Source: a virus
Reading direction: 5' to 3' (one strand)
Virus genome (UHGV): UHGV-0126489
Length of the DNA stretch: 12,682 nt
The position numbers were made by a program, and so were the translations under genes. Under the pieces are notes generated by a model. That model did not search any database and was not told the origin of the DNA. It was given only the letters and a program-made list of their open reading frames with translations. Below, piece by piece: positions 2,369 to 9,387 of the stretch (positions are counted from its first letter, which is position 1; every line of letters starts with the position of its first letter).

Positions 2369-3178
2369 TCAATGAACGGTATCGAGCAGCTTTAACAGCT
2401 CAGGGAATCGGGATTCGAAGAAATGCGGCTGCGTCTCACGCGGATTTGCGGGACTGGTGATGTTCTTGCCGAACATGCAGCCTTTCGCTGTCAGCGACCA
2501 GAATTTTTTGATGTTGTTAATCGCGGTACGGCTGTATCGTTCGCGCTGCTCGACGATCCCCAGCTTCACCATCTGGTGATATGCCTGATTAGCCGTCAGG
2601 CGGATACCATACTGTTTCAGCAGTGCACTCAGTGACAGTGTCGGGCGACTTGAGCCATCGTGTGCATCAGCAGGAGCATCAATGGCATAGCGCGGTGCCA
2701 GATTCGGTAAGCCAACAGCCTCCTGGAGTTTCTGACAGGCACCAAGCACTGAAGAGTTAGACAGGTTTAACTCCCGGCGCATAAAGTCCAGCAGAATCAC
2801 ACCAGCCTGCATCTTGTCAGCAGCCTGTCCGGATAATTTTTCCGGTGCGCTGGTTACCATATCGAAAGTACGGATCACCTTCAGATGGAATGACGGGCTG
2901 ATCCACATTGCATAGGCATACACCAGTTCCTTGCAGACATAAGTTCCCCGTTCATTTCCCCCATGAATCACACTCACCGGGTCAACACCCAAATTCTGGG
3001 TGTTGGTCAATTCATGAACAAGCTCAACAGTTTGTTGGCTGGAAAGAAACTTCCCCGGCTCCTTGGTTCTGGCATTTGCACCAGATGCTACTGCTGCGCG
3101 ATGCAGATCGTTCAGGCTGTAACGCCCATAAGCATCACGACGAACTTCAATACCATCAATGACCATCAGATTATTCAT
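2369..3178 (-). CDS. KilA-N domain protein with C-terminal extension (putative antirepressor-like), 269 aa
   Basis: Start taken as ATG at 3178-3176 (MNNLMVIDG...) preceded by GAGGAGAAACGAAGT; the ORF-track start at 3211 reads through this RBS. N-terminal region resembles KilA-N (MVIDGIEVRRDAYGRYSLNDLHRAA...). Confidence 0.6.
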   Translation of the reverse strand: MNNLMVIDGIEVRRDAYGRYSLNDLHRAAVASGANARTKEPGKFLSSQQTVELVHELTNTQNLGVDPVSVIHGGNERGTYVCKELVYAYAMWISPSFHLKVIRTFDMVTSAPEKLSGQAADKMQAGVILLDFMRRELNLSNSSVLGACQKLQEAVGLPNLAPRYAIDAPADAHDGSSRPTLSLSALLKQYGIRLTANQAYHQMVKLGIVEQRERYSRTAINNIKKFWSLTAKGCMFGKNITSPANPRETQPHFFESRFPELLKLLDTVH

Positions 3179-3197
3179 ACTTCGTTTCTCCTCTTGA

Positions 3198-3587
3198 TCA
3201 GGCGGCTGCACCCGCCGTTTTCTCGTACTTACTGATAGTGATCTCGACCTTCCCTTCCGGGATAACCGGTCCCCACTCCACCAGCATTCTTTTCACCTGA
3301 CTGTCGTCTTCCCACACACCCGCGTGGGTCAGGGCGTCAAACAGCGCCTTGTTATAGTTGTCCAGATCGCGGATCCGGTTATCCGGAGGAAACAACACGA
3401 TCTCCACTGAAGCAGGTGCCGACGTTGGTTTCGGCAGACGACGTAACTGCTCAACTATTGCTGCGCACGCCGCGCTCTGGAATTTTCGCCCCGCCGCGCT
3501 TATCAGGCTCTTACCAGCAAACGCCCCTTTGTTGGGGTGTCTCCAGTACGTGTTCACGCTGGGCGGAAAAGGCAGGATCAGCTTCAT
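3198..3587 (-). CDS. rusA: RusA-family Holliday junction resolvase, 129 aa
   Basis: MKLILPFPPSVNTYWRH... plus conserved RDLDN and DAL motifs. Start ATG overlaps the upstream stop (ATGA). Confidence 0.8.
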   Translation of the reverse strand: MKLILPFPPSVNTYWRHPNKGAFAGKSLISAAGRKFQSAACAAIVEQLRRLPKPTSAPASVEIVLFPPDNRIRDLDNYNKALFDALTHAGVWEDDSQVKRMLVEWGPVIPEGKVEITISKYEKTAGAAA

Positions 3588-6212: not shown

Positions 6213-6391
6213 AGGACTGTCTCCTTCTGCCGGTTGAAATCACCCACAGCCCACTCTGCAAAGCTGTGGGTTACAATTTCCCTGTCACCTGGTACATTCA
6301 CTGCATAGCAATACTCCACCTTCGCTTTTCCACCCGGTACAGGAAGTGCAATCAGTTGCGAGCGACGGTAGTGTGTTGTTAAACTGTTCAT
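6053..6391 (-). CDS. Hypothetical protein (112-aa ORF); N-terminal about 55 aa look genuine, the remainder may be out of frame
   Basis: ATG at 6391 overlaps the upstream stop (ATGA), with GGAGA 9 nt upstream. After about codon 55 the translation becomes Ser-rich and low-complexity while the overlapping frame becomes protein-like. Confidence 0.3.
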
Positions 6392-6972
6392 GCGTTAGTT
6401 TCTCCACAACCAGAAGCAATCGACGCCACGACGCCCGGAGCTGCACACTCGCGGGCGTTACTCTTTTCCGGCGCACAAAAAACACGAAATAACAGTGTTA
6501 AATGCTCCTGCCACTTCGCCATTACTTGGTAGCTGTTCTCTTCGATTTGCTCACGCTCAGCCTGGTCAATAACTCCATCAGCAGTTGCCTTGCGTAAGTA
6601 CTGGGAATGCTTGCCAATCCATTCTATTGACTCCATCAGCCGCTGATTAATGTCACCATTGTCAATGTCATCAATGACCACCAGCGGCACAAACACCCCA
6701 TTACTACGACGGGCTATTGCATCTGTTACATGCCTGGTACCACTGGCATCCTGTAAAACCATGGCCCACTCAAGTGGAAAAATTTGATCCCCACCGCTAC
6801 GCAGTCTGTTATGCAATTGATCTTTTGCTGGGGTGATATCATCAGATTTATACAAACCAAGAATTTCTGCTGCTTCCTCATAGCCATGAGGTAAATCAGC
6901 AATCGTTCTTCGTATTGCTGCCACCAGCCATGCTGGTTGTTTATCAACTTTCCATTCAGGTTCTTTACCCAC
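6388..6972 (-). CDS. Hypothetical regulatory protein in the CII position (194 aa, GTG start 5 nt after the cro stop)
   Basis: Protein-like throughout ([27 protein letters not shown]...). Functional assignment is by gene order only. Confidence 0.35.
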
Positions 6973-6977
6973 GGTTT

Positions 6978-7175
6978 TTATGCCGCAGCACTGTTAGTCT
7001 TTTGATATAAAGACACGTCAACTTTCAGTTTCCCGTTAGTAATTTTTTCTAACTGGTACGCTCGGCCTTCAGGAATAATCTCAGGCCACTCTGAAACAGA
7101 CGGATGCTTAATACCTAGGGCTTCGGCGGTTTTACAAACTCCGCCGAAATAATTAATCACGTCGGATTTCCGCAT
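6978..7175 (-). CDS. cro: Cro-like repressor, 65 aa
   Basis: ATG at 7175 with GGGAGA 6 nt upstream; divergent from the repressor gene across the operator region; size and sequence pattern like lambda Cro. Confidence 0.7.
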   Translation of the reverse strand: MRKSDVINYFGGVCKTAEALGIKHPSVSEWPEIIPEGRAYQLEKITNGKLKVDVSLYQKTNSAAA

Positions 7176-7207
7176 TTCTGTCTCCCGTTAAATTACGTTA
7201 AGCAGAA

Positions 7208-7272
7208 ATGTAGGATATCCAACATGCCAATGTCAAGAATCCTACATGGGCATGTGGTAGGATTGCCTACAT
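7208..7272. promoter_or_regulatory. OR-like tripartite operator with divergent promoters (pR on minus strand; pRM region on plus)
   Basis: Three 18-bp sites: 7208-7225 ATGTAGGATATCCAACAT, 7230-7247 ATGTCAAGAATCCTACAT, 7255-7272 TGGTAGGATTGCCTACAT. Minus-strand TTGACA (7236-7231) - 17 nt - CTACAT (7213-7208). Site 3 overlaps the repressor ATG at 7271. Confidence 0.6.
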
Positions 7273-7915
7273 GATGAACATGAGTGATCGTATTCGCCAA
7301 AGGCGAAAAAAACTGAACCTGACACAACAAGCACTGGCTGATTTGACTGGTGTGAACCGTGTCACGGTTACTGGATGGGAAAAGGACGACTACCAACCAA
7401 ATGGAGCCAACCTTCAAGCCCTAGCCAACGCACTTAAATGCGATCCTCTGTGGCTTGTTAGCGGAAAAGGCTCGCCTGAACCAAAGATAAATCTAAAACC
7501 TGAAATATTCGCAGTTAAAAAAGTCCCCCTCATCTCGTGGGTTCAGGCGGGTTCATGGACAATGACGGAGCCTGGTGTCAGGAAAGAAGATGCTGAAGAG
7601 TGGGTTTATACTACCGCCCTTGTATCAGAAATGGCATTTGCACTACGGGTCCGTGGTGATTCAATGACCAATCCCCTCGGCTCACCATCGATACCAGAAG
7701 GTTCTATCGTTATCGTAGAGCCAGATATTATTGATACAGAGTGTATTAACGGAAAAATCGTTGTTGCCCATATCAATGGTGGGCAAGAAGCGACACTCAA
7801 AAAATTTGTTGAGGACTGGCCGAACAGGTATCTCGTCCCACTAAATCCTAACTATAAAACTATTGAATGCGGTGAGAACTGCAGAATAGTTGGTCTTGTC
7901 ATAATGGATTTTTGA
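7271..7915 (+). CDS. Prophage repressor, P22 C2 / lambda CI type (XRE HTH N-terminal domain plus S24 LexA-like autopeptidase), 214 aa
   Basis: N-terminal HTH (IRQRRKKLNLTQQALADLTGVNRVTVTGWE); C-terminal GDSM Ser nucleophile motif and downstream Lys; collinear with recalled P22 C2. Start could be any of the ATGs at 7271/7274/7280. Confidence 0.85.
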   Translation: MMNMSDRIRQRRKKLNLTQQALADLTGVNRVTVTGWEKDDYQPNGANLQALANALKCDPLWLVSGKGSPEPKINLKPEIFAVKKVPLISWVQAGSWTMTEPGVRKEDAEEWVYTTALVSEMAFALRVRGDSMTNPLGSPSIPEGSIVIVEPDIIDTECINGKIVVAHINGGQEATLKKFVEDWPNRYLVPLNPNYKTIECGENCRIVGLVIMDF

Positions 7916-7935
7916 CACATCTTCCTCACTATCGC

Positions 7936-7961
7936 AAAACCGGGGTATCCCCGGTTTTTTT
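7936..7961 (+). terminator. Rho-independent terminator after the repressor gene
   Basis: AAAACCGGGG - TAT - CCCCGG followed by TTTTTTT (7955-7961). Confidence 0.7.
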
Positions 7962-7977
7962 ATGAGCCTATCTTTTC

Positions 7978-8031
7978 ATGTAGGATAACCAACATAAACT
8001 CTTGACACTTGCATGTTGGATATCCTACATT
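7978..8031 (+). promoter_or_regulatory. OL-like operator pair with pL-like promoter directed rightward
   Basis: Sites 7978-7995 ATGTAGGATAACCAACAT and 8013-8030 ATGTTGGATATCCTACAT. TTGACA (8002-8007) - 17 nt - CTACAT (8025-8030). The segment 8002-8030 is nearly identical to the pR segment on the other strand. Confidence 0.55.
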
Positions 8032-8148
8032 TGTTTTTAGAGTTGTGGTGAATGCGCAGGCTGATTCGCGAAAGACATTGCAGCTATTGCGGAAAAGAGC
8101 TGTTCGGCGGGGCAATTAAACGCCCGTATCTGGAGGTTAAAGAACAAA

Positions 8149-8424
8149 ATGAAAGTCCAGATTTTAAACAATAACTGTGAAGTCGTTTGGTCATACGACA
8201 TAGCCGCCCCTGTAGATCAGAGCGGCGATAGCTGGACCAATGGGAAACATCAGATTATGGCTGGAGTTGTGTTCTCTTTACGCCGTGCTTTGGAACAGGC
8301 TGAAGTATTTCCATCAGACCCTGAATGGAAATGGCCTTTTTCTATTTGTCCAAATTCGGAGAGTACATTTCAGAAAATTGGTCAGAAAGTCGCACTCGAA
8401 GAGCATCAGCCAACTGTTTCCTGA
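8149..8424 (+). CDS. Hypothetical protein, first ORF after pL (91 aa); no arginine-rich N-like motif
   Basis: ATG at 8149 with GGAGG 11 nt upstream; Trp-rich, protein-like. Overlaps the convergent 81-aa ORF by 83 nt. Confidence 0.35.
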   Translation: MKVQILNNNCEVVWSYDIAAPVDQSGDSWTNGKHQIMAGVVFSLRRALEQAEVFPSDPEWKWPFSICPNSESTFQKIGQKVALEEHQPTVS

Positions 8425-8587
8425 TTTTTTCAGGTAACTCGTCGGCATCGCAGAAACAACAACGCTCGATCATGTTGAAAGCCGATTCGTAGAACTGTTT
8501 CTGCTGAGTGTCGCTGAGACAGGAAAAGAGCGACGTTACGATGATTTTATTAATTGCATTATCAAGTTCTTTTTCATCAAAAGTCAT
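8342..8587 (-). CDS. Hypothetical small protein (81 aa), transcribed against the pL operon
   Basis: ATG at 8587 with AAGGA 7 nt upstream; helical-looking translation containing CCFC. Confidence 0.35.
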   Translation of the reverse strand: MTFDEKELDNAINKIIVTSLFSCLSDTQQKQFYESAFNMIERCCFCDADELPEKIRKQLADALRVRLSDQFSEMYSPNLDK

Positions 8588-8840
8588 TTGATTTTCCTTT
8601 TATGTATACGGGCTTAAAAGGATACCACCGAGCCTGAAGTGGTGAAAAGACAGGCACATAACAGCTAAGTATTTTCAACCAGAGAGAATCCTTAGCGTTG
8701 TGGTGAATGCGGCTCAGCGCACGCGGGTTAAGGTTGAGGCTGACAGTCGACCTTCTGTGGATACCCACCCGTCTGGTGTGCAACCTTCGCCAGGCACCGG
8801 GAGGCACCCGGCACCACAACTTTATGCTGTGTGTAGTCCT

Positions 8841-8887
8841 GGCGGTACCAGTTTGTACCCTTGCTTCAGGCTGGTACCGTCCTTTTT
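8841..8887 (+). terminator. Candidate intrinsic terminator / structured RNA 3' end
   Basis: GGCGGTACC(AG) pairs with (CT)GGTACCGTCC around a 19-23 nt loop, followed by TTTTT at 8883-8887. Orientation matches pL transcription. Confidence 0.4.
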
Positions 8888-9024
8888 ACAAAACAGAGAA
8901 GAGCATCACCGGACGACGGGCTCATAACCCAATCCATCCGGGCGGCTGCCGCCGCAGGTGTTCTTCTCTGTTTTGTGGAGAAACTAATCGGCCTTGCAGG
9001 GTCGATATGATGAGGAGCAGCAAA

Positions 9025-9387
9025 ATGGCTAGCGAACGCAGTACTGATGTGCAGGCATTTATTGGGGAGCTGGACGGCGGCGTATTTGAAACCAAAATCG
9101 GCGCAGTTCTCAGTGAAGTCGCTTCCGGTGTGATGAACACGAAAACCAAAGGTAAGGTCTCGCTCAACCTGGAAATCGAACCATTTGATGAGAACCGTGT
9201 GAAAATCAAACACAAACTCTCATATGTTCGCCCGACTAACCGCGGGAAAATTTCCGAAGAAGACACCACCGAAACGCCGATGTATGTCAATCGCGGTGGT
9301 CGCCTGACTATTCTGCAGGAAGACCAGGGACAATTACTGACTCTTGCCGGTGAACCTGACGGAAAACTCCGCGCAGCAGGTCGTTAA
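9025..9387 (+). CDS. yfdP: YfdP-like protein of unknown function, 120 aa
   Basis: ATG at 9025 with GAGGAG 7 nt upstream. The ORF track's 226-aa version includes a non-coding, structured upstream part. Length equals recalled K-12 YfdP (120 aa); gene order yfdP-Q-R-S matches. Confidence 0.5.
   Translation: MASERSTDVQAFIGELDGGVFETKIGAVLSEVASGVMNTKTKGKVSLNLEIEPFDENRVKIKHKLSYVRPTNRGKISEEDTTETPMYVNRGGRLTILQEDQGQLLTLAGEPDGKLRAAGR

Follow-up and report, generated by a model that had tools for sequence, protein, structure and literature searches.

A probable lambdoid immunity region with P22-type geometry, two left operators and an uncharacterised specificity

The repressor of phage P22 recognizes an 18-bp site whose bases 2-7 and 12-17 it contacts; the four bases at the centre are left uncontacted and are preferably A/T (PMC4267663). 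In phage lambda, the cI mRNA that starts at the maintenance promoter pRM is leaderless (PMC10491246), and the gene for PaaR2, a repressor of a cryptic lambdoid prophage, has likewise been shown to be leaderless (PMC8630535). The DNA considered here is the virus genome UHGV-0126489, a stretch of 12,682 nucleotides (the window), and the system in question is its repressor gene together with the repeats and promoters at positions 7208-8031. This region is very probably the immunity region, i.e. the lysis-lysogeny switch, of a lambdoid E. coli prophage with P22-type geometry, two left operators and an uncharacterised specificity. Judged by its sequence, the switch belongs to a known class, the conventional lambdoid switch of P22-type geometry, with a binding-site sequence that seems not to have been characterised before.

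The genes follow the order of both lambda and P22: leftward cro, then the promoter pR with the right operator (OR) and pRM, the rightward repressor gene cI, a terminator, and finally the left operator (OL) with the rightward promoter pL. The repressor gene (7271-7915, plus strand) and cro (6978-7175, minus strand) are divergently transcribed. Direct reading of 6800-8400 and a scan of the whole window located five matches to the 18-bp consensus ATGTAGGATATCCTACAT, three between cro and the repressor gene and two downstream of the repressor terminator. Site 1 (OR1, 7208-7225, ATGTAGGATATCCAACAT) is strong, with one mismatch, and lies over the spacer and -10 of pR. Site 2 (OR2, 7230-7247, ATGTCAAGAATCCTACAT) is weak: its right half is a perfect half-site and all five of its mismatches fall in the left half, which keeps only the outer ATGT of the consensus and holds the pR -35 hexamer. 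Site 3 (OR3, 7255-7272, TGGTAGGATTGCCTACAT) is a moderate match with four mismatches and overlaps both a putative pRM -10 and the repressor start codon. Beyond the terminator, site 4 (OL2, 7978-7995, ATGTAGGATAACCAACAT, two mismatches) stands upstream of the pL -35, and the strong site 5 (OL1, 8013-8030, ATGTTGGATATCCTACAT, one mismatch), an exact reverse complement of site 1, extends over the pL spacer and -10. The central four bases of the sites read ATAT, ATAT, ATAA, GAAT and ATTG, respectively. Shuffled versions of the window rarely produce such matches. None with up to three mismatches occurred in 200 dinucleotide shuffles, while at up to four mismatches four sites were observed against a mean of 0.05, and at up to five mismatches five sites against a mean of 0.49 (100 mononucleotide shuffles). 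No further paired half-sites beyond these five were found in the scan of the whole 12.7-kb window. A third, weak OL site between OL1 and OL2 (7991-8008) was considered and rejected, as it agrees with the consensus at 5/18 positions by eye and is absent from the scan. A preliminary description of this DNA had placed five copies of the operator at these coordinates, three on one side of the repressor gene and two on the other. The positions agree and the number of sites exceeds shuffled expectation; the uniformity implied by the word copies was overstated, as three sites are strong, one is moderate (site 3) and one is half-degenerate (site 2).

The predicted early promoters overlap operators, pR with OR1 and OR2 and pL with OL1. 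The minus-strand pR (7236 to 7207) would use the -35 TTGACA (7236-7231), an 18-nt spacer and the -10 TACATT (7212-7207), and the plus-strand pL (8002-8031) has the same -35 (8002-8007), spacer length and -10 (8026-8031); each scored 10/12 in a consensus scan. The two are copies of a single 33-bp promoter-operator cassette, TTGACA-N18-TACATT (TCTTGACA...CTACATTT), which are identical at 31/33 positions and point outward from the repressor gene. The duplicated cassette had been described earlier as a 29-bp segment, and the shared stretch is slightly longer than that. The repressor terminator on which the earlier layout relied is also real: a 10-bp G+C-rich hairpin (AAAACCGGGG/CCCCGGTTTT) followed by T7 lies on the plus strand at 7936-7961 (-17 kcal/mol, z = -4.4), and was missed by a simple terminator scan.

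The 214-residue repressor matches Pfam HTH_3 (57.9 bits) and Peptidase_S24 (89.4 bits). Residues 4-66 match the DNA-binding domain of P22 c2 (PDB 1ADR/2R1J, E ~1e-15), whereas residues 84-212 match the C-terminal domain of lambda cI (PDB 3BDN, E ~1e-23). In the latter alignment the motifs VQAG, GDSMT and TLKKF stand opposite A111-G112, S149 and K192 of lambda cI, so that Ala93-Gly94, Ser131 and Lys177/178 correspond to its cleavage site and catalytic dyad. From the presence of these residues, RecA-stimulated self-cleavage is predicted. By its domain matches, the repressor is a natural hybrid of a P22 c2-type helix-turn-helix (HTH) head and a lambda cI-type tail for autocleavage and oligomerisation. 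Near its C-terminus the window copy lacks 9 bp (AAACAAGTA, encoding Lys-Gln-Val) at 7900/7901, which gives ...VGLVIMDF against ...VGLVKQVIMDF; the 9 bp are present in all 30 sampled E. coli copies and in all fetched phage copies. The RefSeq entry for the repressor is WP_000981537.1, and the window encodes a 214-residue variant. The 65-residue cro product is a P22-type, all-alpha Cro (Pfam P22_Cro, 77.3 bits against a cutoff of 30.2; P22 Cro PDB 1RZS, E 7e-12, residues 1-59), and its gene has a Shine-Dalgarno sequence, GGGAGA, 7 nt before the ATG. The second gene of the pR operon (6388-6972, minus strand) encodes a CII-like activator of the YmfL family (Pfam Phage_CP76, 28.8 bits against a cutoff of 26; PHROG 101 'CII-like transcriptional activator', E 3e-62). 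Relatives of this protein in RefSeq are labelled 'YmfL family putative regulatory protein', and the labels given there to the repressor and Cro are only 'LexA family protein' and 'Cro/CI family transcriptional regulator'. The gene identities and layout assumed in the preliminary description are supported. Compared with all relatives examined, the window also carries a 22-bp deletion at 6972-6978 (minus strand), between the cro stop codon and the GTG of the CII-like gene. As a result, the CII-like gene is without its Shine-Dalgarno sequence, GAGGAA, and its GTG follows the cro stop by 5 nt. Expression of the gene could thereby fall and the lysogeny decision shift; alternatively, the deletion may be a sign of prophage decay.

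A tblastn search with the repressor provided a graded set of relatives, of which four were fetched and their intergenic regions read. The Klebsiella phage ST13-OXA48phi12.2 (L003) has an unstudied immunity region and a repressor 50.7% identical to that of the window. Coliphage mEp235 (L004) is a P22-immunity phage whose repressor has the recognition helix of P22 c2, and it stands for P22 here. Upstream of the first in-frame repressor ATG, the OR sites of the window, with the repeat ATGTAGGATATCCTACAT, are centred at 54.5, 32.5 and 7.5 bp, those of L003 (AGGTAACTAAAGGTACAT) at 55.5, 32.5 and 7.5 bp, and those of mEp235 (ATTTAAGAnnTCTTAAAT) at 57.5, 34.5 and 9.5 bp. OL1 and OL2 are 35 bp apart, centre to centre, in all three, with a third site in mEp235; in the window and L003 they lie on either side of the pL -35. 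In these two, the pR -35 hexamer (TTGACA and TTGCTA, respectively) falls within the middle OR site. Downstream of pL in the window, neither an N-like open reading frame (ORF) nor a boxA (CGCTCTTTA) like those of L003, mEp235 and phage L was found, and the early-left operon appears to be without N. The paper on Lys8385Vzw, a Shiga toxin (Stx) 1 phage discussed below, likewise notes the absence of N (PMC7946995).

Recognition helices and repeats change together in this set while the positions of the repeats are kept, which supports the earlier claim that these operators define the immunity specificity. The helix reads NRVTVTGW in the window, SRVSVTKW in L003 and SNVAISQW in P22 and mEp235. Arg at helix position 2 (window and L003) goes with G at operator position 3, where P22, with Asn32, has T; this Arg-G3 correspondence may reflect a direct recognition rule. 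The 18-bp length and A/T-rich centres of the window sites fit an operator of P22 c2 type, as does the P22 c2-homologous N-terminal domain. In the P22 repressor, Asn46 organises a minor-groove water network, and its counterpart in the window repressor, Asn44, is conserved (PDB alignment). When the module was compared with the P22 immunity group, the window operator and helix both differed from those of P22 and mEp235 (half-site ATGTAGGAT against ATTTAAGAT; helix NRVTVTGW against SNVAISQW), and it is therefore not of P22 immunity. Since the half-sites differ at positions 3 and 6, the window phage and P22-type phages should be heteroimmune. No description of this immunity type was found in the literature.

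The module is not confined to the window. It is 97% identical in coliphages vB_EcoM-720R4 and SKA5, occurs in Lys8385Vzw and three Stx2c-converting phages, and is present in 140 of 5426 complete E. coli genomes (~2.6%), including those of enterotoxigenic E. coli H10407 and of O157:H7 (e.g. FRIK944), O103 and O111 strains. Conservation was assessed in an alignment of 10 module copies, namely the window, the two coliphages, one Stx phage and six RefSeq chromosomes. Variable columns number 2/88 in operators and 12/132 in the other intergenic sequence (one-sided Fisher p = 0.035). The variable positions lie in spacers abutting the sites (7226-7227, 7248-7249, 8009-8011) or just outside them (7206, 7977), and the two changes within sites affect the outermost base of site 2 and a central base of site 3; sites 1, 4 and 5 are invariant. 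This pattern of variation appears to outline the 18-bp units, and the evidence is modest because the 10 sequences are close relatives and not independent. The cro and cI coding sequence is far more constant than the non-operator intergenic columns (7176-7270 and 7916-8040), with 4/843 variable positions against 12/132, a roughly 20-fold difference (p = 3e-8), and the Cro and CI proteins are identical across the six RefSeq genomes sampled. According to its published description, Lys8385Vzw lacks CI, Cro, CII and N (PMC7946995). Positions 2601-3547 of that phage (MT225100) in fact carry the cro/repressor/CII-like module, with its genes labelled 'hypothetical', 'LexA family repressor' and 'DNA-binding protein'.

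From the sequences, geometry, homologies and conservation described above, we infer binding, the order of occupancy, cooperativity, the regulation of pRM and the transcript start points as follows. A repressor dimer would bind the 18-bp pseudo-palindromes of consensus ATGTAGGAT-ATCCTACAT, contacting the outer bases and leaving the A/T-rich central four uncontacted, by analogy with P22. In a lysogen, repressor on OR1 (over the pR spacer and -10) and, cooperatively, on the weak OR2 (over the -35) would turn pR off, and with it replication and the expression of cro and the CII-like gene. Filling of OR2 is probably aided by the lambda-like C-terminal domain. Similarly, repressor on OL1 (over the pL spacer and -10) and OL2 (upstream of the -35) would turn pL off. 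The repressor gene would be kept on by a weak maintenance promoter with an extended -10 in OR3, and the A of the first ATG is probably the start point of its transcript. When repressor is abundant it would fill OR3, covering -16 to +2 of this promoter, and turn it down (negative autoregulation). In transcripts that begin further upstream, e.g. at a CII-dependent establishment promoter, the AGGA of OR3 would act as a Shine-Dalgarno sequence. SOS-induced cleavage at Ala93-Gly94 would free both early promoters, and Cro would then act on the same sites. Any looping between OL and OR would span about 800 bp.

The elements proposed at OR3 can be read as follows. The first in-frame repressor ATG (7271-7273) is overlapped by site 3, which ends at 7272, and further ATGs stand at 7274 and 7280. 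The left half of OR3 deviates from the consensus (ATGTAGGAT becomes TGGTAGGAT), which creates an extended -10 of the form TGnTAnnAT, TGgTAGGAT, at 7255-7263. Together with a 7-nt discriminator and +1 at A7271, this gives a putative pRM core at 7255-7271 (plus strand). By analogy with the leaderless repressor transcripts introduced above, a leaderless repressor mRNA starting at A7271 is plausible. The preliminary description had noted the overlap of site 3 with the start codon, which holds, and had suggested autoregulation at initiation. Autoregulation through OR3 is indeed proposed here; it would act on the DNA and on transcription, not on the initiation of translation.

Several observations weigh against parts of this model. 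Taken alone, site 2 is near chance level in the shuffle statistics, and the conservation test, at p = 0.035, is weak. A literature search for the predicted operator half-sites gave only unrelated primers and constructs, and the operator sequence turned up in no paper. The putative pRM is without a recognisable -35 and was not listed by the consensus scan, which needs a -35, and the TG of its extended -10 is absent in L003. The centre of OR2 lies at -32.5 relative to +1 at 7271 (the P22-type equivalent is at -34.5), and that of lambda OR2 at -42; because OR2 is a full helical turn closer than in lambda, lambda-style activation of pRM cannot simply be assumed. The 35-bp OL spacing amounts to ~3.3 helical turns, which is not obviously fit for cooperative binding on one face of the DNA. 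An alternative pRM with the -10 TACATG (7268-7273) and +1 at 7280 would place OR2 at -41.5; it is without the conserved final T of the -10 and was set aside as very improbable.

Among the rival explanations, one denies that the repeats are operators. Since the -10 elements of pR and pL coincide with the outer TACAT(T) of the sites, promoter function could account for part of the repeat; the repeats would then be duplicated promoter elements, or targets of another factor, with incidental palindromy. This is hardly credible given that sites 3 and 4 lie away from the pR and pL -10 positions, that the full 18-bp dyad of P22-like length with an A/T centre points to a dimeric HTH protein, that relatives with other recognition helices carry other repeats at the same positions, and that variation is confined to spacers. 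Another accepts only four true operators and treats site 2 as a lone half-site or a chance match beside the pR -35, so that OR would consist of OR1 and OR3 with at most a monomer-like contact between them. All the mismatches of site 2 do fall in one half, ~0.5 sites of this quality are expected by chance in 12.7 kb, and the last base of the site (7247) varies in 1/10 copies. Set against this, the half-site is perfect over 9 bp, with distances of exactly 22 bp to OR1 and 25 bp to OR3, L003 (51% identical) repeats the design at matching distances with a good distal half and a -35 in the proximal half, the P22-type OR2 has the same position, and the lambda-like C-terminal domain offers a route to cooperative filling of a weak site. 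The restriction to four operators is accordingly judged unlikely. Site 2 is credible through its position and its equivalent in relatives, and because the middle OR site of both the window and L003 combines one good half with one -35-bearing half, OR2 is, on this comparison of sequences, probably a designed weak operator and not a chance match.

The start of the repressor message allows a further alternative, doubtful but by no means negligible, in which the maintenance transcript has a leader. It would start upstream of 7259 and use the AGGA at 7259-7262, inside OR3 and 8 nt before the ATG at 7271, as a Shine-Dalgarno sequence, or else translation would begin at 7274 or 7280. The AGGA is suitably spaced, the leaderless promoter has no -35 that could be named or that the scan picked up, and one phage record sets the repressor start at the second ATG. 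However, L003 has TAACAT-7 nt-ATG at the matching place, so that the TAnnAT-7 nt-ATG geometry recurs there, and it mirrors lambda pRM. A promoter far enough upstream to provide a leader would also have its -10 and -35 under OR2 and OR1, and would therefore be shut off by its own repressor. The first ATG (7271) is favoured as the repressor start in the sequence comparison, as P22 c2 (PDB numbering) too has a short N-terminal extension before the conserved M-x-E/D-R-I-R. A leaderless message from the first ATG is the preferred reading here, as a plausible one. A more far-reaching proposal is that the 18 bp of OR3 (7255-7272) combine four overlapping signals (operator, extended -10 of a leaderless pRM, establishment Shine-Dalgarno sequence and start codon) and that, with the hybrid repressor and a two-site, out-of-phase OL, the switch behaves quantitatively unlike those of lambda and P22, e.g. 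with no activation from OR2 or with different OL-OR looping. This is improbable, but if true it could affect how easily toxin phages are induced, as the module sits in Stx-converting phages.

Several features lie to the right of pL. Directly downstream of it, an unannotated 86-bp block (8042-8127, plus strand) recurs at 95-100% identity in 947 places in 841 of 5426 E. coli genomes. In prophages, which are of several immunity types, the block lies between the repressor gene and yfdP; P1-like phage-plasmids carry it downstream of tRNA-Thr. The block begins with GTTGTGGTGAATGCG, a motif that also opens a structured leader at 8697, and holds two overlapping mini-ORFs, one of 25 residues with a CxxC motif and one of 23 Arg-rich residues with GTG/ATG start variation. 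Its fold is not unusually stable (z = +0.6). In other prophages a structured leader or small RNA (sRNA) region lies upstream of yfdP, and the block resembles the 5' portion of a variant form of it, cut at a mosaic junction. A nut/put site and a small ORF were also considered, and the variant leader seems to explain the block better. The junction lies at ~8127-8147, where the module shared with 720R4, SKA5 and the Stx phages ends. From 8147 to 9012 the sequence agrees at 99% with the orf33 region of Shigella phage SfV, a phage with another type of cI.

Within this SfV-like segment, two overlapping ORFs, 8149-8424 (plus strand) and 8342-8587 (minus strand), belong to their own PHROG families, 3195 and 3311, respectively. 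RefSeq annotates only the minus-strand member of the pair, although the region lies within the plus-strand pL transcription unit. A structured RNA follows at 8684-9006 (plus strand; -147 kcal/mol, z = -5.4) and comprises a multibranch domain closed by GTTGTGGTG/CACCACAAC, a terminator-like 15-bp hairpin with T5, and a hairpin of ~25 bp; phage LLS has a different stem in place of the terminator-like one. A scan of the window against Rfam returned nothing at the gathering threshold. Positions 8667-8889 (plus strand) match the prophage sRNA STnc100 (Rfam) over its full length at 41.2 bits, below the gathering score of 47 (E 2.8e-7), and STnc100 has been linked to the PasD sRNAs (2026 preprint). 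A 226-codon ORF at 8707-9387 (plus strand) was rejected as an artefactual upstream extension because the structured RNA runs through its upstream part. The yfdP gene proper occupies 9025-9387 (120 residues, as in RefSeq) and is preceded by a Shine-Dalgarno sequence, GAGGAG, at 9012-9017.

The value of the module is mainly practical. Its operator sequence and layout allow the immunity type to be recognised and typed in genomes, and, as a naturally occurring variant of the P22 repressor-operator pair with a different specificity (Asn32 to Arg with T3 to G, plus A6 to G), it can serve as a test case for rules of HTH recognition. The understanding of lambdoid switches is unchanged by it.

Among described systems, P22 and mEp235 share with the window a homologous DNA-binding domain (E ~1e-15), a Cro of the P22 family and 18-bp operators with an A/T-rich centre. 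The OR spacings are 22/25 bp in the window and 23/25 bp in mEp235, with the last site abutting or overlapping the repressor ATG, and a distance of 35 bp separates OL1 from OL2, which lie on either side of the -35. The window differs in the position of pR: its OR1 covers the pR spacer and -10, not the sequence downstream of the -10. It also has two OL sites where P22 has OL1-3 and mEp235 shows a third, its C-terminal domain is closer to lambda cI, and no N gene or boxA was found downstream of pL. The L003 locus is the closest architecture found and agrees in the OR distances to the ATG, the OL spacing, the TACATT -10 inside OL1 and the half-degenerate OR2. It is set apart by its repressor (50.7% identical), its AGGTAACTAAAGGTACAT-like operator and a boxA-like CGCTCTTTAAC downstream of pL.

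Lambda has the same overall logic and gene order, including a terminator after cI and before OL and pL, and a homologous C-terminal domain (E ~1e-23) in which the Ala-Gly site and Ser/Lys dyad are kept. The maintenance mRNA of the window is probably leaderless with its putative -10 inside OR3, as in lambda (PMC10491246). However, the window operators are 18 bp long against 17 bp in lambda, the specificity of the HTH domain is unrelated, OL has two sites instead of three, and OR2 is ~10 bp closer to the repressor start. The window Cro belongs to the all-alpha P22 fold family, and the CII-like protein is of YmfL/CP76 type. Similarly, Stx2 phage 933W is described in an article citing the original work (PMC8065619, citing Tyler et al. 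2004) as having three OR sites and only two OL sites, the same numbers as in the window, whereas its operator sequence and repressor DNA-binding domain are unrelated and it has N/nut antitermination.

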